Shown: positions 5,347 through 21,993 of the stretch, in pieces
Numbering within the stretch: the first letter of the stretch is position 1
How the letters are laid out: the number at the start of each line of letters is the position of its first letter
Assembly: GCA_963752595.1 (NCBI GenBank)
Contig: CAVVYZ010000013.1
Coordinates: 96,001-160,000, forward strand
Direction: 5' to 3'
DNA length: 64,000 nucleotides
Source: an uncultured delta proteobacterium
GTDB taxonomy: Bacteria > Desulfobacterota > Desulfomonilia > UBA1062
Translations under genes and position numbers: made by a program
Notes under the pieces: model-generated
The model's database searches: none
What the model was told of the DNA's origin: nothing
What the model saw: the letters and a program-made list of their open reading frames with translations, nothing else

Positions 5347-6282
5347 TCAGACGGTCAACACCTTACATACGGCATCGATCTCCGTCTTGTACGTTCCGAC
5401 CAGCTTCTTTGCCTCGCTCTTGAGGTTTTCGATGTTCCCGTTCGTCGCGTTGTCCATGTCATCGGAAGCAACGGTTAGGCTTGTTTGAAGCCGGACGTAT
5501 TGTTTGCCGAGAAACAGGTTCATCTGGTAGTTTGATGCGTCTGCCAGGCCGTCAAACATGCAGCTCAAAAGGGGAGCAACCCAGCCTGCTTTGCCCCAGT
5601 CTTTGGCTTCCGCATAAGCAATCGGCCGGATCAATTCACCTGTCCCGAGCGATAAAACAAAGAAGTCGTTTTCGTCGGGAAAGATCCTTTTTGCTTCAGC
5701 GTATGCAGAAACAGACGGAGAGTTGATAAAAACGCCTCCGTCGACCAATGCCCTCGTCGCTCCGCCGACAGGGACGAGAGCCGGTTCAAAATACGTAGGG
5801 GCAGCAGACGTTGCCCGTGCTGCGTGCTTCATCTGCACCGAGCGGTACTCTTCCCGCCAGCTCTTGAAAAACAGCGGCTCGCGATTCTGGATATCGTAGC
5901 TGGTGATCAATGTTCTTGTTAAGCACGATCCCAGCGGCTCATCCCCGAAGTACTCATCCAGGACCTTCTCAATTCCGCTGTGGGAGTACGTCTCATCCGC
6001 CAGACCTGCTACCGACGACACGCCTTTCCACAGGGAACGCGAGAAGATCTCCTTCCCTCGCGACTGATAAATGTCGGCCAGATCCTTTGCAGAATACTGC
6101 GCCTTGCCCTTGCCGTTATCTTTGGAAAAGCCCAGCGCGAGTATCCCGCCGGTGGAAGTGCCGGCTATCAGGTCGAAGCTTTCCGCTGTCGGTCTCCCGG
6201 TCTTTTCTTCTATTTTCGAAAGAACAAGGGCAGGGATAAGACCACGGATACCACCTCCGTCAATACTAAGGATTTTCTTCAT
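5347..6282 (-). CDS. Patatin-like phospholipase
   Basis: DGGGIRG oxyanion loop, GTSTG nucleophile motif, catalytic DGG; RBS GGAGG. Confidence 0.95.
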   Translation of the reverse strand: MKKILSIDGGGIRGLIPALVLSKIEEKTGRPTAESFDLIAGTSTGGILALGFSKDNGKGKAQYSAKDLADIYQSRGKEIFSRSLWKGVSSVAGLADETYSHSGIEKVLDEYFGDEPLGSCLTRTLITSYDIQNREPLFFKSWREEYRSVQMKHAARATSAAPTYFEPALVPVGGATRALVDGGVFINSPSVSAYAEAKRIFPDENDFFVLSLGTGELIRPIAYAEAKDWGKAGWVAPLLSCMFDGLADASNYQMNLFLGKQYVRLQTSLTVASDDMDNATNGNIENLKSEAKKLVGTYKTEIDAVCKVLTV

Positions 6283-6436
6283 CTTACCTCCTGCGATTAA
6301 ATTTCAATAACGCGCATCAGCGGTCGTGACCGTGACGCAGACCGTCTTATTACAATTGTCCGGTCAGCCGTTTTAATCGTGGGCCGACCTCTATGGCATG
6401 AAACGCCATGTATGTTCCTTTAGCTTTATTCTAAGG

Positions 6437-6493
6437 GGTCAATGTGCAGATCAGTTGCGGCTGAAAGCCGTCCGGTGGATTAACGGGTTGGGT
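6437..6493 (-). mobile_element. attC site (degenerate)
   Basis: Same core as the other sites (gatcagt-gcggctgaaagccgtccggtggat). On the minus strand it reads ACCCAAC...ATTGACC, so the R' GTT is mutated. Confidence 0.7.
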
Positions 6494-6502
6494 TTTTTGC
6501 CG

Positions 6503-6823
6503 CTACTGTACTTCTGGACGATCTGTGCCGCATTGCCAACAAGTCGTGAATTGAGGGCCGAGTAATTCACGGCATTTTGGGCATTTCCACGAATGGCCTT
6601 TGATACCAGGTGAGCCTTCATCGTTAATGTATCTGGATGTTATTGATGCAGCTATCTCGAATTGGCTATCATCTAAAATCCATACCGAAGGATGACCGTC
6701 TGTTGTAGCTTGCCCTTTTAATAGAGATTCATTGCGAATTAAAGACAAGATACCTTCAGCCTCAAGAAGAGTTTTTACAAAGTATGCATCGCTTAATCTG
6801 TAAGCTGTAAAGACTTGCTTCAT
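6503..6823 (-). CDS. DUF2007-like protein with C-terminal zinc ribbon (cassette gene)
   Basis: AYFVKTLLEAEGI.IRNE N-terminus; WKCPKC...QFTTCWQCG. Confidence 0.85.
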   Translation of the reverse strand: MKQVFTAYRLSDAYFVKTLLEAEGILSLIRNESLLKGQATTDGHPSVWILDDSQFEIAASITSRYINDEGSPGIKGHSWKCPKCRELLGPQFTTCWQCGTDRPEVQ

Positions 6824-6876
6824 TCACATCTCCTGGAAATCCAGAGTCAGTCATGACCTTCGGTTGAAAGCCATAA

Positions 6877-7057
6877 TACACCCCCAAGAAAAGTTTTGGA
6901 ATTGGAGATGGACACGAATAGATTACAGAGTCTTATATTGCTAAAGAAGGGAACTGAGTTTCCATGTGAACTTCCCCAATTACCCCCCCTATGAAACTAT
7001 GCAAATGTGTTACCCATGTACCCAGAATATTCTGTTACCTATGTCCCCGTTCGCTCA
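6877..7057 (+). mobile_element. Probable IS481-family remnant (ends only, no transposase)
   Basis: Direct repeats tgttacccatgtaccc (7008-7023) and tgttacctatgtcccc (7033-7048), 25-bp period, ending ..CA at 7057; this resembles IS481 right ends. The left boundary is tentative. Confidence 0.5.
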
Positions 7058-7062
7058 ATGTG

Positions 7063-7383
7063 TTAATTATTGAAAACATCATAGATGGATTGCTTGAATT
7101 GCCCTTTCTCAACAAACTTATCAACAACTATGCGATAGAGATCCCAATTCCACTCGTTGATGCTAAATGGTTTTTTCCCATAACGCATGAAAAACAAAAA
7201 TTCCTTTAGTTCCTCTGCATAACTTGTGCTTCCCATCTGACGATTCCTCACCGCTCCTTTTATGCGGTAAGAAATACGTTCAACGGAATTCGCTTCTTCT
7301 TCTGCAACTTGGATAATCTCATGGTAATCTTTGTCTTTGATACGATCGATGAAATCAGAGAAACTGGATCTTCTGTTTGTCAT
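7063..7383 (-). CDS. Hypothetical protein (cassette gene)
   Basis: RBS GAGGAG; AT-rich ORF starting immediately after attC 7408-7464. Confidence 0.8.
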   Translation of the reverse strand: MTNRRSSFSDFIDRIKDKDYHEIIQVAEEEANSVERISYRIKGAVRNRQMGSTSYAEELKEFLFFMRYGKKPFSINEWNWDLYRIVVDKFVEKGQFKQSIYDVFNN

Positions 7384-7407
7384 AGCTCCTCTCTTTCAAA
7401 GGCAATG

Positions 7408-7464
7408 GTATAACGCCACGCGTCACCGGCGGCTTAAGCCGTCCGGTGGATGCGATGGTTAGGC
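7408..7464 (-). mobile_element. attC site
   Basis: Minus strand GCCTAAC...GTTATAC, 57-bp imperfect palindrome; the upstream gene's TAA stop lies inside R''. Confidence 0.9.
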
Positions 7465-7852
7465 TGCTCTATCCAAAAGCCTCAATGCATCTTTTTTTAC
7501 AGACAGCAAAGAGATCCCAGCTTTCTGGATCTGCTCAGCATTCCATGTATCCGGATCACGCCAAAATCTACTTTTATCATGCAATCTAAAGGCAAGTTTA
7601 CGATCAATTCTCATTACCAGGAATGAAGTATTAGACCATAATTCAGCCAATTCATTTTCTATTCTTCTATCTCGGTCTGCACCCTCAGCCCTTAGTCTAC
7701 AATATGTCTCCAGTTTTCTCCGCTGCTTCGACAACGACACGTAAAGTTTCAGCAGTCTTGCTGTTACGGGTAACTTTTTTTGCTTCAATATATGCCAAGA
7801 AAGCAGTAACAGCAGAAACTAATGATATCCAATTTGATATTTCATCACTCAT
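7459..7852 (-). CDS. Hypothetical membrane-anchored protein (cassette gene), 1-nt frameshift near 7711
   Basis: RBS GGAGG, then MSDEISNWISLVSAVTAFLAYIEAKK...EAAEKT; removing one G continues into ETYCRLRAEGADRDRRIENELAELW...KSRFWRDPDTW, with the stop inside attC. Confidence 0.7.
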
Positions 7853-7907
7853 AGATCCTCCAAGCACTCATTTGATTAAGAATTGAGATTTCAAATTATA
7901 TGTTAAA

Positions 7908-7961
7908 GCCTAACGTGCGGATCAGCGGTGGCTGTAAGCCGTCCGCTGGATTTGGTTGGGC
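7908..7961 (-). mobile_element. attC site
   Basis: Minus strand GCCCAAC...GTTAGGC, 54 bp; nearly identical to 10454-10510 apart from a 3-nt deletion. Confidence 0.88.
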
Positions 7962-7965
7962 TGTA

Positions 7966-9274
7966 TCATAATGTCCCAATATGTACAGAACTCGACATGA
8001 CTCCAGGAATCTTTGCGACAGCATCGACAATTAAATTAATCCTGTGGAAGTCCTCGACTATCAGTACTGCGACTAGGTCTACCGAGCCCAATGTACGGGT
8101 AACTTCTAATACTTCCCGGAAATGCTTTGAGTTCATTCTCGACATCTTCAAGGAATTTAGGGTGAGAGAGTGTAAGGTTCGCGTACACCTTAATCTTCCC
8201 CCCTCTTGGCGGTATAACTCCTTGCTGTGTAGTCTGCTCTTTTGACCACTTCTTATGAATTGTTTCAATTAGCTGATCCGTTGCACGGCCTACATTACCA
8301 TCGCGTAAATCGAGATATACAACGTCACGGAGAAGGGGTGGGATCTCAACATCATCCAGCAAGATTGGCAGTAGTATTGCTTGCCCCTGGCCTGAGATTT
8401 GCCAACTCATTGCTGCATTCAATTCTTTTTGAGCCCAAGCACTGCTTAGGGATTTGTTCGAAATAAAGAATGCAACAAAATCGGATGAATCTAGTCCATG
8501 GGCGATGTTTTGAATCAGACTATCGCCTGTCCTAATTTCTGCTTCATCAATCCATACTTTTATACCGCCTTGTATAAGCAGCTCAGCCACATTGCGGACA
8601 ATACCCTTGTCAGCATGAGAGTGACTGAGAAATACCGTTGGCTTTTGGTCAGCGTTTGCAGTAGCCGCAACTCTAATAGTACGGCGAATGGTCGACAAGA
8701 TAAGGTCGCGTGACAATCCAAGTTTTTCAGATTCGCCCACGAGTTCCTCTATATCAGACTGCTTAAGGCCAGAGTTGGAGTGGCTTTTCCCGAATTCCTC
8801 AATGGTCTGCATTGTACGCCCAAGGTCAGCAGCCACACGAACAGCCAAATCATGCCCATTTTTGAAGTATGCAACTGTGTGACGTTCCTGAAGAACACTT
8901 TTCCATCGGTCGAGTAGACGAATTTTTTCAGGATCGCGTTCTATGTTTCTTGGCAAAACCGGAGTGTTCTCATCAAGCATATAGACGAGACATGGCTTCC
9001 TTAGTCGAAATCCTTCCTCATATTCGGCTTCCGAGAAAGAGATGCTAAGCCCCGATACAAGACTTCCATAACGATGTCCAACTATCACAACGAGAATATC
9101 GCTCTTTCTTACCTCCGCTAAACAGGTCTCGATTGGCACATCTGGACGGGCACCAAAAAATTCCATTGAATCATGCTGCAACTGCAATTTCCGAACAGCA
9201 TCCAACACAGCCTCTCGTTCGTCCGCCAAGTCAGAAAACGTGCTGCATAGAAATACCATCAAGTTTCGTTTCAT
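7966..9274 (-). CDS. DUF4062-TIR-(Lrp/AsnC RAM-like) multidomain protein, 1-nt frameshift near 8116 (cassette gene)
   Basis: DUF4062: VFLCSTFSDLADER...CLAEVRKSDILVVIVGHRYGS...SEAEYEE. TIR: VFLSHSHADK...VWIDEAEIRTGDSL...SAWAQKEL. The tail continues in the 7966-8268 frame (see findings). Confidence 0.85.
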
Positions 9275-9293
9275 CTGATCGTTCCTGTTATAT

Positions 9294-9354
9294 GCCTAAC
9301 GCTAGGCATCAGCCGCGCGGCTATGCCGCGTCGGCCTGGATGCGCTGGTTAGGC
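9294..9354 (-). mobile_element. attC site
   Basis: GCCTAAC...GTTAGGC, 61-bp imperfect palindrome; contains the TAA stop of the 9349-10416 gene. Confidence 0.92.
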
Positions 9355-10416
9355 TTTTACTCGTCTGACTAAGGACCGAACCCATGACATAGCAGACTCA
9401 ATGGCCCAGTCAGTTTGAGGTTGTGTGAGCGTTGGCATTGGCTCTGATCCCGGGCCATGCCCAAGTGAGTTCCGAACCTTCCGAAAATAGTCTTTTAATA
9501 TCTCACCCTCCCACGGAGCGAGGAGGCTACCATTGTTCTTGCTCACTAGATTATCTATGTACGCGGCAGCGCCGGTTTCAGTTCCACGTGTCCAACCCTT
9601 TATGTCTGAAACGATTTTTATTGCGCTTTCAAGCGCCTTTGCTGCGAATATGGCTGGGTCTTTATCATTTGAATCTCGACGATCAAGCGCCTCCTTCATA
9701 TCGATGTCCACGTTCGCCCAAATCGGGTCAGCAACTAGCTCCCAAAAAGGCTTTGCGATGTTCTGCTCGATCGTCTGATCGTGGGAAACTTGAATAAAAC
9801 CGTTGTGATATGTCAAAGGTGCTCCGGCGCGGCGAAAGCGCTCGTTGAGTTCGGTAACTTGTTCACGAAACACGTTATTAATGGACGCATTCCAAGCTTT
9901 GGCTCCGTCCACTGCACTTCCCTGGACCCTGAAAGCTCTACTTGGAGTGAGATTGCGGAATGCCGCAACATCAAGTGTTTGGGGTGATTGTGCGTTAATT
10001 CTGGCGACTTCTTCCTCTCGTAAACGCATTGCGAGTTCGATGAAGCTGAGCCTATCTTTGATGTAACTGTCAGGATCTTGAAGTCCAAGGTGAGGTTTTG
10101 CTGTGACGAACTGCTCGCAAACATGGTCCCAGCCAAACCAACCTGAAATTGGGAACTCTTGCCCTAAGGCATTCTTTTGTGTGTATGAATAGTAGCGTTG
10201 AGCAAGCTCTTTGAGACCGAGTTCTCTAGCTAGCCTGTCGTGCAAACCCTTCCACTTAACTTTGTTTGATGCGTGTTCCTTGCCGTCAGAGTCATAGTAG
10301 GGGAATAGGTCCCTTGCGATAGCGATTGTTTGCGTTAAAAGACGCCCCTCGTGCTCTGTATAGGTGGACCAGATTGGGAACTTGAGATACCTATATGCAA
10401 ATATGTCTGTCAGCAT
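9349..10416 (-). CDS. AbiJ-like (NTD4-type) protein with C-terminal HEPN domain (cassette gene)
   Basis: N-terminus MLTDIFAYRY...LHDRLARELGLKEL; ELNERFRRAGAPLTYHNGFIQ; AAKALESAIKI; HEPN R-x4-H motif RNSLGH. Confidence 0.75.
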   Translation of the reverse strand: MLTDIFAYRYLKFPIWSTYTEHEGRLLTQTIAIARDLFPYYDSDGKEHASNKVKWKGLHDRLARELGLKELAQRYYSYTQKNALGQEFPISGWFGWDHVCEQFVTAKPHLGLQDPDSYIKDRLSFIELAMRLREEEVARINAQSPQTLDVAAFRNLTPSRAFRVQGSAVDGAKAWNASINNVFREQVTELNERFRRAGAPLTYHNGFIQVSHDQTIEQNIAKPFWELVADPIWANVDIDMKEALDRRDSNDKDPAIFAAKALESAIKIVSDIKGWTRGTETGAAAYIDNLVSKNNGSLLAPWEGEILKDYFRKVRNSLGHGPGSEPMPTLTQPQTDWAIESAMSWVRSLVRRVKA

Positions 10417-10453
10417 TTTTCGTCCTCTGCGAATATTCGATTTGTGTCCTTAA

Positions 10454-10510
10454 GCCTAACGTGCGGATCAGCGGCGGCTGAAAGCCGTCCGCTGGATTTG
10501 CTGGTTGGAT
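10454..10510 (-). mobile_element. attC site
   Basis: Minus strand ATCCAAC...GTTAGGC, 57 bp, with internal stem cagcgg.cggc tgaaa gccg.ccgctg. Confidence 0.92.
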
Positions 10511-16331: not shown

Positions 16332-17294
16332 ATGAGACAGTACATCCTCAGGCGGATTCTCTACTCGTTTCTCATCCTTTTCTTCATATCGATCTTCATC
16401 TTTACGCTGGGAAGGGTGCTTCCCGGAGACCCGGTGCAGGCCGTGCTCATGACTTCCCGGATGGGCCCGGTGGATGCTGAGGTCATGGAGGATCTCAAAG
16501 CCCAGTTCGGCCTGGATAAGCCTCTGCCCGTGCAGTACCTCGTCTGGGCCGCGAACTTCATCCGGGGAGACTGGGGCATTTCCATAGCGAGCGGCGAGGA
16601 GGTGCTGCGCCATGTTCATGCACCGGCTGCCCATCACCCTGGAGCTTTTTTAGGCTCGGTGCTTCTGGGTCGTGCATCATCGGGTTCCCGTTCGGCATCA
16701 TCTCTGCGCTCAGGCGCAATTCACGGCTCGACGTCTCGCTGACGATCGGTGCCATCATCGGCATTTCCATCCCGGTGTTCTGGGAGGGGATCGTCATGAT
16801 CTATCTCTTTGCCGTGATGATTCACATCTTTCCGCCGTCGGGCTATGTGCCCTTTTCCGAGAGCATGAGCGGCAACCTCCTCTCCGTTGCCATGCCCACC
16901 TTCATCATGGGCACCCAGGGGGCAGGGCTCCTCTGCAGGTTTGTACGGTCGAGCCTGCTGGAGGTTCTGGGCCAGGACTATATCCGGACGGCATATGCCA
17001 AGGGCCTGCACAGGACAGGCGTGATCCTCCGGCATGCGGTGAAGCCTGCAATGATACCCGTGGTCACGATCGCCGGCCTTGCCTGGGGCTATGTGGTGGC
17101 CGGGTCTTTTCATCGTGGAGTACATGTTCGCCATCCCGGGCCTGGGGCGCATGGGCGTAAACGCGATCTTCGCAAACGATTTCCCGGTCATCCAGGCTAC
17201 CCTGGTCATGGTTGCGCTCAATATCCTGACCGTGAACCTCATGGTCGATCTCCTGTACGGATACATCGACCCGAGGGTGAGGATGCAACAATGA
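16332..17294 (+). CDS. dppB: Dpp/Opp-type ABC permease B (frameshifted)
   Basis: YILRRILYS...LPGDPV...GLDKPLPVQY; RSSLLEVLGQDYIRTAYAKGL; DLLYGYIDPRVR. Confidence 0.88.
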
Positions 17295-18200
17295 AGCCGG
17301 ATAGAGATTCTTCGACCGGGATGACGTGCCTGCTCCGCCTCCGACCCCCTCACAAGCTGTATTCCGTGCCCTGATACGACACAAGATAGCGCTCATAGGC
17401 ATGGCCATCATGCTGTCTTCTCATGCTTGTAGCGGTATTCGCGCCGCTCATCCTGCCCCGTACGACCCGAACGAGCAGGACCTCTACCATGTCCTGGAAG
17501 GCCCATCCCGGCAGCACCTGCTCGGTACTGACGACGTGGGCCGGGACCTGCTGTCGCGGGTCATCTACGGTTCGCGGGTAACCCTGATGATGGGCGCCGT
17601 CTCCACCCTGTTCTCGGGCCTTATCGGCGTGTTGCTCGGCCTGGTAGCGGGCTACAAGGGCGGGATCATCGATATGGTCATCATGCGCATCACCGACACC
17701 TTCATGTGCATGCCTGCCCTGGTCCTGATCCTTGCCATCATGGCCGCCATGGGCCCGGGCATGGAGAGTGTCATCCTCTCCATCACGATCCTTGCGTGGA
17801 CCGCGTTCGCGCGCATCGTGCGGGGCCAGGTGATGCTGGTGCGCGAGCTCCCCTATGTGGAGGCGGCCCATGCCATGGGCGCCTCGGGTTTCAGGATCAT
17901 ATTCCGGCACCTGCTGCCCAATGTCATGGCCCCGATCATCGTTACCACCACCATCGCGCTGGGCGGAAACATCATGCTGGAGAGCGCGGTGTCCTTCCTG
18001 GGCTAGGCGTCCAGCCGCCCACGTCGAGCTGGGGAAACGAGCTGCGGATCGGCTATTCCTACCTGGAGATCGTGCCGCTGTTTTCCATTGCGCCGGGATT
18101 GATGATAACCCTGGCGGTCCTGGCCTTCAACTTCATGGGCGACGGCCTCAGGGATGCCCTCGACCCGCGGCTCCGCGGAAATGACAGGATGATGAAATAA
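17291..18200 (+). CDS. dppC: Dpp/Opp-type ABC permease C (frameshifted)
   Basis: HLLGTDDVGRDLLSRVIYGSR; YVEAAHAMGAS..RIIFRHLLPN; FNFMGDGLRDALDPR. Confidence 0.88.
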
Positions 18201-18210
18201 GGTAAAAGAT

Positions 18211-19179
18211 ATGCTGCTCGATGTGCAGAAACCTGACCACGCATTTCCTTACCGATAACGGCATCGTCAAGGCCGTGGACGATGTCTCCTACGGTCTGGA
18301 TGAAGGAGAGACGTAGGCCATCGTGGGCGAGAGCGGCTGCGGCAAGACCGTGAGTGCCCTTTCGCTCCTGGGCTCATCCCGGACCCGCCGGGCAGGATCG
18401 TCAAGGGCGAGGTCCTGTTCGAGGGCAGGGACCTCCTGAAGACTGAGCGAAGACGAGATCTGCCGCATCCGGGGCAACCGGATCGCCATGATCTTCCAGG
18501 AACCCATGACCTCGCTCAACCCGGTGCTGACCATCGGAAGCCAGGTCATGGAGCCTCTGATGCTCCACAAGGGCATGAACAGGAAGGAGGCGCTCCGGGA
18601 ATGCATCGAGCTGCTGAAGATGGTGCGGATCCCCGATGCCGCGAGCCAGGGTCAACGCCTTTCCCCACCAGTTCAGCGGCGGCATGCGGCAGCGGGCCAT
18701 GATCTCCATGGGGCTGGCCTGCAACCCCAGGCTCATCATTGCCGATGAGCCCACCACGGCCCTGGACGTGACCATCCAGGCCGAGCTCCTGGAGCTCATG
18801 AAAGGATCTCACCCGGGACCACGGGACCGCCCTGATCATCATCACCCACAACCTGGGCATCGTGGCCCGGTATGCGGACAGGGTCATGTCATGTATGCCG
18901 GAAAGATCATCGAAAAGGCCGTGACCAGGGACCTCTACCGCGACTCCGCTGCACCCGTACACGGTCGGGCTCATGGAATCCGTGCCCCGGCTGGACCAGG
19001 ACATCAGGCAGAAGCTCATGCCCATCGAAGGTCAGCCCCCGGACCTCTGCCAGGCTGCCCCGGGCTGCGCCTTCCACCCGCGGTGCAGGCATGCGCTTGA
19101 CCGGTGCAGGGAAGAGGCCCCTGTCTCTGAAGGAAGATCGCCGAAAACCATGAGGCGGCGTGCTGGACTCGATGCATGA
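18211..19179 (+). CDS. dppD: Dpp/Opp-type ABC ATPase D (multiple frameshifts; end approximate)
   Basis: GESGCGKT Walker [47 protein letters not shown]. Confidence 0.85.
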
Positions 19180-20208
19180 CATGAACAGAGTGATGTCCTC
19201 ATCCGGGTCAAGACCTGAAAAAGCATTTCCCCATCTATCAGGGAGTGATCTTCAAGAAAAAGATCGGCGATCTCAAGGCCGTCGACGGCGTGAGCTTCAC
19301 ATCCACAGGGGGAGACCCTCGGGCTCGTGGGCGAGAGCGGCTGCGGCAAGACCACCACCGGCAGGACCATCCTGCAGCTCGAGCGACCGACCTGCGGAGA
19401 GGTACTGTTCGAGGGCACGGACATCACCGGGCTCGGGAAGTATGAGCCAGGAAGCTCAGGAAGCACATGCAGATCATCTACCAGGACCCCTTCGGTTCCC
19501 TGGACCCCCGGATGACCGTCGGCGACATCGTGGGCGAGCCCTTGATGATCCATCAACCTGGCAAGGGGAAGAGGCGAATACGCCGACCGGGTCGGAAGCC
19601 TGCTGGAGACGTGGGCCTGAACCCGGCCATGGCCGTCGAGGTATCCCCACGAGTTCAGCGGCGGTCAGCGGCAGCGCATCGGCATAGCCCGGGCGCTGGC
19701 GGTCAAGCCGGACTTCATCGTCTGCGACGAGCCGGTATCCGCCCTGGATGTGTCGATCCAGGCCCAGATCATCAACCTCCTGGAAGACCTGCAGGAAAGG
19801 TTCAGCCTCACCTACCTCTTCATCGCCCACGACCTGCCGTGGTCAGGCACATCAGCGACCGGATCGCCGTGATGTACCTGGGCGAGATCGTCGAGATCGC
19901 GGACCGGCGGCGACCTGTACCATAACCCGGCGGCACCCCTACACCCGGGCGCTGCTCTCGGCCGTGCCCATCCCGGACCCGGAAGTCGAGTACGACACGG
20001 GAGCACTGCATGATACAGGGGCGAGGTGCCGAGCCTGCTCAATATCCCGGACGCGTGCAGGTTCCATCCCCGCTGCCCGCTGGCGCAAACGATCTGCACG
20101 GGAGACCAAGCCCGTGCTGAAAGCACTGGATACAAGCGGGCACATGGTCGCCTGCCATTTCGGGATGATAAGACGCTGAAACGTTTCAAGGAGGTCATGA
20201 GGAACTGA
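19176..20208 (+). CDS. dppF: Dpp/Opp-type ABC ATPase F (multiple frameshifts; start approximate)
   Basis: [64 protein letters not shown]. Confidence 0.85.
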
Positions 20209-21993
20209 TGCGAAAAGATACTGTTCACGCTATCCTGCATCGCAAGCGGGGTGCTCATCTTCCTTGGGGATGATCGCCCTGCCGCCTGCCCGGGCGCAGG
20301 AAAATCCGAAGGCGAGACCGGGCTGGATGGAATGGGGCCCGAAATATTCTCCCGCAAAGCCTGTCAGGGGCGGGAACCTGCGCATAGCCTTTCCGGTATA
20401 CATCGGGGTGATGAACCCTAATCACTTTCCTGTCCTGGACTGGCCCACCATGAGTTATATGTACGAAAGGCTCATCCACTTCGACAGCAGCTACAGGCCG
20501 ACGCACCCTGGCTCGCCGAGTCGTGGAAATACATCGATGACGTTACCGTGGTCATGAAGCTAAAGAAGGGCGTCATGTTCCACGACGGGTCCCCGTTCAA
20601 TGCCCGGAGCCTCAAATACCAGATGGACTGGATCATGGACAGGGACAACATGGCCTGGACCAGAGCCTGGATCGAACCCCTGAAGTCGGTCGAAGTGGTG
20701 GACGAGTACACGGTCAGATGGCATTTCAAGAGGCCCTGGGGATCGTTCCTGGGGACCATGGCAAGCGTTCCCGGGTATGCCGTCTCGGCCAAAGCCCTTG
20801 AACGCGATGCCGCAAGAGCAAAGGCGAAAAGGATCGAGCGGGAGCTCGTCACTGCGCGGCGCAAGGCCAAGAATGGAAAAGACCCGGATAAGGCGGCCAA
20901 GGCGGCTCAGCTCACGGTCGACCTGGAGGCGCAGCTGAAGAAATACACGGAGCTTGCTAAGGGCGCCGGGCCGCTCGATATCAACCCGGTCGGCACCGGG
21001 CCGTATATGTTCGAATCTGCCAGCACGGATAATTACATACAATTGAAGCGCAACCCCGACTGGTGGTTCGGCAAGAGCATAGGGCATCCCGACATGCCGT
21101 ATTTCGACGGGATCCGGGTCTCGGTCATCCCGGATCCGTCCGTCCGGCTGGCAAACCTCAAGGCGGGCAAGCTCGATTTCATTCTGCTCGATGCCACCCA
21201 GTACCGGCTCGTGAAAAACGATCGGAACTTCAACTCCGGAGCCATGCCCATGAACTGGCTGGTGTTTCTCACCTTCAACCATGCGAAGGGGCCGTGCTCG
21301 GACATCAGGGTCCGTCAGGCCATCTCCCATGCCATAGACCGGAAGGCCCTGGTCATGGGGACCCAGTTCGGGCTCGGAAGGGTGTCGAGCTGCGTGTACC
21401 CCGACGACCACTGGGCACATAATCCGGACCTGAAGCCCGTGAGCTATGACCCCGGGCTGTCGAAGAAGCTTCTTGCCCAGGCCGGGTATGCGAACGGGCT
21501 CACCATAAAAGGCTTTACCCTCAATACACCCGAGGCCCAGGCCTTTGCAAAGGCCGTGATGGCCATGCTGGCAAAGGTCGGGATCACGTGGCAACCGGTC
21601 TTTCTGGGCATCACCGGGATGATCGAGCCTTTCCGGAAGCTGGACTTCGACGTGATCGGAAACCTCTACCCCTGGATTCAGGAGCCGGACCACGCCGCCA
21701 CGCTGCTCTACGATCCTGCCAGCCCCTTGAATAACGGCAGGAGCAATAACCCGAAGGCGTTAGCACTCATCAAAGAGGGAAGAACCACGGTGGACGAGGC
21801 AAAGAGGGCAAAGATCTACCATGAGCTTGAAAAGGTGCTTTACGGCAATTACGAAGATGCCTGGCTGTGGTGGCCGACGGCGGTCCTGGTCAGCAGCAAA
21901 AATGTCATGGGATACAATAAGGACATGCACCGGCAGTATGGGGAAGGCTATATTTTTTCGCATCCGCAGTGGTTCAGGGACGGGCATCCGTGA
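20208..21993 (+). CDS. Family-5 ABC substrate-binding protein (5' part frameshifted)
   Basis: KPVRGG.L; LKKGVMFHDGSPFNA; PVGTGPY; DIRVRQAISHAIDR. Confidence 0.9.

Follow-up and report, generated by a model that had tools for sequence, protein, structure and literature searches.

A single-gene integron cassette was found to encode a protein in which a NIR (DUF4062) domain, a linker, a TIR domain and an Lrp/AsnC-type RAM domain are fused in one chain (7966..9274, minus strand; 435 amino acids when one extra base is skipped). The gene lies in the window, that is, the whole 64,000-nucleotide stretch of DNA analyzed, from an uncultured delta proteobacterium. It belongs to a NIR-TIR family that is apparently undescribed and integron-mobile and that appears to combine two distinct NADase-type families within a single polypeptide. 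With a probability of roughly 0.5, the protein is interpreted as a single-gene abortive-infection NADase effector in which RAM would serve as an accessory clustering module and the trigger would be phage-derived. Catalysis, clustering, trigger and defence are read across from the biology of Swarozyc, Cat1 and Lrp. Upon phage infection, the protein would cluster and NAD+ would be drained by the NIR-linker-TIR core. RAM would act as a dimer or oligomer module rather than as a textbook amino-acid sensor, and a phage protein or infection product is considered a more likely trigger than a free amino acid. The C-terminal slot, whether occupied by RAM, a Fis-HTH or another small domain, may tune assembly or the range of triggers.

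The annotated open reading frame (9274-8036, minus strand) encodes 412 amino acids. Homologue alignment and reading frame point to a probable inserted base in a GGG run (8115..8117, minus strand). A previous sequence-only reading of this DNA had described the end at 8036 as unlike protein and had proposed that dropping one G at about 8116 restores the frame; both points held. The nearest intact homologue among the best 119 of 506 proteins from the homologue search (P0002, 435 amino acids) shows 84% identity before the break. Past the break, the read-through tail matches it at 40 of 49 positions and the annotated tail at 1 of 26. Once the frame is carried across the GGG at 8117-8115, the tail matches PF01037 with E 1.2e-9 and covers positions 4-69 of this 73-position profile, which bears out the AsnC-type domain that had been proposed, and the other-frame stretch 8115-7969 matches this profile by itself (25.2 bits, cut-off 25). 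The restored frame ends in TGA at 7968-7966. This stop adjoins the downstream attC core in the manner of a cassette, as had been claimed, although the gap is 4 nt and not 5 bp. A ribosome-binding-like AGGA (9283..9286, minus strand) is located 8 nt 5' of the ATG, within the cassette, and a promoter scan gave nothing better than chance.

An assembly error is the most likely cause of the break in this copy, since rpoB in the same assembly is also shattered: it lies in 7 pieces here, whereas 4 of the 5 congeners searched have it in one piece and the fifth gave no match. Aligned to one congener, rpoB has about 28 frame-breaking gaps (21 insertions), some close pairs of which may be alignment noise. 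A paralogue scan, run without a control genome, counted 309 apparent shifts in 1.17 Mb of paralogue-covered DNA, and the tail past the break in the cassette gene has not drifted. A frameshift that is genuine in the host is therefore unlikely. The copy would then be NIR-TIR with a 26-residue junk tail, or would be decaying in an integrase-less array. In its favor, the interval 8070-8203 is spanned by no read or contig from three sequencing runs, the array has no adjacent integrase, and the next cassette (7853-7459) likewise looks +1 shifted. The errors of this assembly must also be patchy, because they have spared rpoC and gyrA. A junk-tailed copy would equal the tail-less majority of relatives, and the matter concerns the copy, not the family. 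Programmed +1 frameshifting was set aside, as the intact homologues are all in frame. Elsewhere in the window (16332-20357), peptide ABC-transporter-like genes are split over several frames, which fits assembly indels.

The first domain is a TIR-like NADase-type NIR domain (residues 3-158; 8801..9268, minus strand), assigned from Pfam and from its match to the Swarozyc protein KpSwz. DUF4062 (PF13271) covers residues 7-87 (E 6.2e-22, 78 bits against a cut-off of 24.7) and residues 4-120 match KpSwz (E 2.7e-7). The predicted catalytic Glu84 (9025-9023, minus strand) lies in S-F-S-E-A-E-Y, a region of the form S-[FY]-[TS]-x-x-E-[YF], and is aligned opposite an Ala of the deposited KpSwz construct that is taken to be the E97A site. 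A helical stalk or linker follows (residues 159-211; 8642..8800, minus strand; model helices 140-166, 172-184 and 189-204), which is variable (37% mean identity) and shorter in P0134. The third domain is a canonical bacterial TIR (residues 212-345; 8240..8641, minus strand) that matches TIR_2 over residues 214-335 (E 5.5e-29). Its best solved matches are Cat1 (E 1.9e-13), a second bacterial TIR and AbTir (5e-12), with which the W280-x3-E284 motif is aligned (Glu at 8425-8423, minus strand). ThsB models are also matched (best E 4e-14), over the TIR fold only. The corrected protein thus matches all of PF13271, PF13676 and PF01037, and the glutamates that the sequence-only reading had placed at catalytic positions in EAEY and WAQKE are present as E84 and E284. 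That reading had also regarded DUF4062 as a nucleotide-acting fold. DUF4062, renamed NIR, has since been described in anti-phage systems as an NADase that resembles TIR (10.64898/2026.05.01.722283; 10.64898/2026.09.04.749371; 10.64898/2026.06.25.731849), which strengthens the immune interpretation. In the accessible text of two of these preprints, the bacterial NIR systems with NAD+ read-outs all deplete NAD+ and abort infection (10.64898/2026.05.01.722283; 10.64898/2026.09.04.749371).

Family counts cover 120 proteins, namely the query and the best 119 of 506 homologues ranked by closeness to it. All 120 share the NIR-TIR core. E84 (with Y85) is invariant (120/120), E284 is present in 119/120 and W280 in 114/120; the conservation of the two glutamates indicates selection on both active sites, irrespective of which tail is present. 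P0002 was modelled with AlphaFold2 (pLDDT 71, pTM 0.42, with unreliable relative placement of domains), and the model contains two alpha/beta domains that resemble TIR, together with a helical linker and a tail of beta-alpha-beta-beta-alpha-beta topology. When the whole model was compared by Foldseek, phosphoglycerate dehydrogenases came out on top at TM 0.15-0.18, which was treated as an artefact of domain order; the likeness was rejected because sequence searches place the tail in Lrp/AsnC and gave no ACT match.

The tails attached to this core vary. Among the query and the best 119 of 506, 65 proteins have none, 16 an LYRNQ-type tail, 15 RAM, 14 a Fis-HTH, 6 an RDYENV-type helical domain and 4 another tail. 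The tail-less class comprises proteins ending no more than 35 residues past TIR, some of which are possibly truncated and several of which are directly followed by attC. Because most relatives carry nothing else, the NIR-linker-TIR core is regarded as the working unit. The combination of PF13271, PF13676 and PF01037 was found precomputed in 13 of the best 119 of 506, and P0009 adds a weaker RAM, giving 14. Homologues ending after TIR had been named beforehand as evidence against the fusion; such endings are indeed in the majority, and the fusion is nevertheless intact in those 14. In a core tree of the 120 proteins, the RAM rows all fall to the same side of one branch, which has an SH-aLRT support of 95. 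A second core tree of 51 rows, which included P0134 and kept every third non-RAM row, gave a branch support of 93/88. RAM is kept in all 16 rows of the RAM clade. The placement on one side of a branch fits a single acquisition of RAM that has been retained since.

Other tails were characterized in part. The LYRNQ...ATHLHS tail is an unnamed domain of 95 residues (L001:7000-7344 in P0030; also in P0015-P0018, P0021 and P0022); its model is confident (pLDDT 87), yet the best structural match reaches only Z 5.1, nothing viral matched below E 0.3 and the Atlas gave no match, so that its fold stays unassigned. Fis-type HTH tails (PF02954) occur on NIR-TIR at L008:177-1442 and L011:664-2046, and such proteins are a candidate DNA-sensing variant of the core. 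Close NIR domains are also fused to tails that, by eye, we take to be an HD-GYP phosphodiesterase-like domain (L058:1024-2298), beta-propeller repeats (L067:2063-3892) and a TRAP-type solute-binding piece (L073:4944-5798).

RAM was also seen on other immune-type proteins. P0182 is an unrelated TIR protein (23% identical) with RAM and an intact T-x-T; it forms a two-member cluster, and the other 119 matches listed for it lack PF01037, with one weak profile match. P0236 is a TPR-nSTAND1-HEAT protein bearing two RAM copies. Judged by sequence, RAM has been recruited to immune-type proteins sporadically but independently (P0182, P0236). Two RAM copies are also carried by a membrane-anchored helical protein (P0222). 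A search of 1.84 billion representatives returned 1428 matches, and 32 of the best 150 were Pfam-scanned. A RAM-only word search among proteins of 239-762 amino acids, a very insensitive search, returned the query alone. A search for the gene itself found it in none of 11 congeners and in 1 of 60 relatives. Named hosts of its relatives belong to the Proteobacteria, Deltaproteobacteria, Chloroflexota, Bacteroidota and Planctomycetota, and among viral contigs 176 pattern matches yielded no relative. Databases already group the core automatically, as a 90-member cluster labelled 'DUF4062/TIR'.

The gene is the single open reading frame between hairpin-folding attC sites with RYYYAAC/GTTRRRY cores, which makes it a gene cassette. 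The attC of the upstream cassette (9294..9354, minus strand) supplies the GTT that forms the 5' end of this cassette, and the cassette's own attC is 54 bp long (7908..7961, minus strand; GCCCAAC...GTTAGGC). Both are part of an array of five attC sites (6435..10510, minus strand; 10510-10454, 9354-9294, 7961-7908, 7466-7406 and 6495-6435). No integrase was detected on contig C13, and the sole over-cut-off integrase is on C20, where a complete integron with an intact integrase and at least eight attC-like sites was seen (G000:C20 117749-133845). Further attC sites occur on contigs C2, C5, C16 and C26. An attC-like hairpin directly after the stop was found at 10 of 30 related loci and after 1 of 250 long host open reading frames. 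This test was strict and included some near-copies; it started from 33 loci, with duplicate or truncated L050-L052 excluded beforehand, and 3 were dropped for short downstream DNA. Both RAM-bearing loci (L006 and L057) carry attC after the stop. The 20 of 30 loci without attC were counted against the preferred interpretation. Streamlined defence genes have been reported to abound in sedentary integron cassettes (10.1101/2024.07.02.601686), and integrons have been described as defence stores elsewhere (10.1101/2024.07.02.601719).

Neighboring genes were compared with PADLOC models. Matches were found for 15 of 108 neighbor open reading frames (10 of 19 loci) and for 2 of 50 window open reading frames outside the array; the enrichment is modest, the control is one window, the loci are non-independent and six L006 frames were hand-picked. 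The matched types include ThsB, type II R-M, OLD/AAA, SEFIR, TIR-TM and others. The upstream cassette (9349-10416, minus strand) matches AbiJ_NTD4 (E 1.3e-16), and its C-terminal R-N-S-L-G-H fits the HEPN R-x4-H motif; it is likely an AbiJ-like RNase defence gene. The flanking cassettes gave no Thoeris match. The next cassette (7459-7853, minus strand) has an ATG and a GGAGG site leading to 51 amino acids, with a second frame continuing to a stop in attC, and no relative was found in 100 genomes of the class. A small cassette gene (6503-6823, minus strand) encodes DUF2007 with a zinc-ribbon-like end. Just beyond the last attC lies a patatin phospholipase gene (5347-6282, minus strand) whose product fits PADLOC models of CBASS phospholipase effectors (E 3e-67), with no adjacent cyclase seen.

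The RAM domain (residues 360-435; 7969..8197, minus strand; beta-alpha-beta-beta-alpha-beta) was assigned from PF01037 and the model. The P0002 tail also matches PF01037 (E 5e-10), and the RAM profile matches solved structures of FL11 (E 1.7e-11) and of stand-alone RAMs (E 1e-9). At E 0.05, neither P0002 nor the window protein matched any HTH family. In Lrp-type proteins, ligands have been reported to shift RAM assemblies between dimer and octamer, with Ile driving DM1 to octamers and Met favoring dimers (PMC2995911), and Grp has been shown to hold the amino-acid backbone by G99, D102, T132 and T134 at the dimer-dimer interface (PMC2504300). Is the protein an amino-acid-gated immune NADase? 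A ligand at RAM dimer-dimer interfaces would then shift the dimer/octamer state and gate NIR and TIR, and infection or starvation would alter the amino-acid pool and fire the enzyme. This is considered doubtful, even though the domain is a true Lrp/AsnC RAM, TIR activation by ligand-driven filaments is described for Cat1 (PMC12162218), and RAM also occurs on the unrelated P0182 and twice on P0236. Ligand gating may be real in part of the clade because RAM is kept in 16 of 16 fusions, G396 and D399 are invariant (16/16) and T-x-T is intact in 7; T394 is kept in 15 of 16. The equivalents of T132 and T134 in this copy are S428 and V430 (Ser-x-Val), however, and the pocket of P0002 is also eroded. 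Of the 16 fusions, 7 have hydroxyls at both of the carboxylate-binding Thr positions; among 77 stand-alone RAMs drawn from the best 150 profile matches, 71 do (Fisher p 4e-5, overstated by kinship). On the fusion-clade tree the T-x-T state changes at least five times, and it is intact also in the deepest branch (P0029, P0077) as well as in P0004 and P0012. RAM has the lowest mean identity of the folded domains (41%, against 75% for NIR and 61% for TIR). For several Lrp-type proteins a lack of amino-acid binding has been reported or predicted (PMC2995911), the tail-less relatives outnumber all tailed ones in the sample of 120, and P0182 belongs to a cluster of only two. The partial erosion of the pocket residues speaks against this copy being a canonical amino-acid sensor. 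The pocket data are compatible with a possible sensor in the pocket-keeping branches or with a changed ligand, and true amino-acid gating in those branches is a tentative suggestion. The one-gene system proposed by the sequence-only reading therefore stands in that the gene alone fills its cassette, and its amino-acid control is weakened by the S-x-V pocket and by RAM being optional. RAM-driven assembly is plausible.

Two further explanations set the core or the biological role in a different light. Simple NAD+ depletion does not explain the retention of two NADase-type domains, and plain redundancy poorly accounts for both active sites being kept across tail types. The domains may instead divide the labor: TIR would sense or signal, perhaps with a ThsB-like ADP-ribose isomer, and switch on the NAD+-draining NIR, with RAM tuning the threshold. 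The tail-less majority must sense via the core, the TIR matches ThsB models, and one NIR preprint speculates on signalling variants (10.64898/2026.09.04.749371). The ThsB matches are restricted to the TIR fold, however, the best solved relatives of this TIR are of the NAD-hydrolysing Cat1 and AbTir types, and neither the protein nor the cassette contains a SLOG or Macro domain or any other domain known to bind signals, so that such a division appears rather unlikely. A role apart from phages is quite improbable. In that case the protein would be a metabolic or stress-related NAD-cleaving toxin or dormancy switch connected to ordinary regulator domains such as RAM and Fis-HTH, and integrons would carry it because it stabilizes cassettes or aids survival under stress. 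Two tail types do derive from transcription regulators (PF01037 and PF02954), and 9 of 19 loci have no PADLOC neighbor. Yet the gene is alone in its cassette with no antitoxin partner, its spread is patchy and cassette-borne, and the characterized bacterial NIR proteins are described as anti-phage, with the exception of Eva02, which did not protect against the phages tried (10.64898/2026.06.25.731849).

The putative NADase effector and its relatives offer several lines of work. A series of tails (none, RAM, Fis-HTH and two unnamed domains) on one core provides a test of how modules are attached to NAD-depleting effectors. The RAM branch contains pocket-intact and pocket-eroded homologues that allow amino-acid-gated immunity to be tested side by side. 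An immune protein that reads amino-acid pools, with RAM gating two NAD-consuming sites by a dimer-octamer switch, is an unlikely prospect. If true, RAM would have been recruited more than once (to NIR-TIR, an unrelated TIR and an NLR-like STAND protein), the repeated pocket changes would mark ligand shifts and not decay, and feast/famine sensing would have been repurposed as an infection alarm.

In the literature searched, neither an NIR-TIR tandem nor an immune effector fused to RAM was found described, in agreement with the novelty first claimed for this architecture. The main text of the three NIR preprints does not mention AsnC, Lrp or integrons; their architecture figures or supplements may still show the NIR-TIR core. 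DUF4062 anti-phage NADases named to date in these sources are Swarozyc, Vulcan, Vesta and Evangelion. Swarozyc (KpSwz) is likewise a single gene with an N-terminal DUF4062 NADase-type domain, in which E84 is aligned to E97, followed by a helical stalk and a C-terminal auxiliary part (10.64898/2026.05.01.722283). KpSwz ends in an HTH/winged AUX that is reported to bind phage portal (10.64898/2026.05.01.722283), whereas the C-terminal half of the window protein consists of TIR_2 with its own Glu and PF01037; KpSwz was not matched by TIR or RAM queries. Evangelion, Vulcan, Vesta and NIR-Avs share a NIR core with a variable C-terminal module and are mobile (10.64898/2026.06.25.731849; 10.64898/2026.09.04.749371). 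NAD+ depletion is reported for them and predicted for the window protein, and the C-terminal domain of VstA has been proposed to be ligand-binding (10.64898/2026.06.25.731849; 10.64898/2026.09.04.749371). They differ in that the NIR-TIR tandem is undescribed in the accessible text of their preprints. Evangelion, set beside the window protein by description only, has a DUF4062 core, a short AUX and a Q/W/E motif. The window protein has the E-Y region, with W124 (107 of 120, query plus best 119 of 506) not aligned to Eva W162, and in place of a short AUX a C-terminal part of 280 amino acids with a second enzyme domain.

Outside the NIR systems, a close parallel is Cat1 (TIR-CARF), in which a small oligomerising ligand-binding domain on TIR drives assembly and NAD+ cleavage (PMC12162218). 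Cat1 needs type III CRISPR cyclic oligoadenylate and has one catalytic domain (PMC12162218), whereas the window protein has RAM and its cassette contains no signal-making partner. Thoeris differs in having separate ThsB and ThsA-type genes, where a single gene lies between attC sites here. With the Lrp/AsnC proteins FL11 (PH1519) and DM1, the window protein shares the fold and sequence of RAM, including the G and D of the ligand loop (PMC2995911; PMC2504300). It departs from them in lacking an HTH, in having S and V in place of T132 and T134, and in the fusion of RAM to two enzyme domains.
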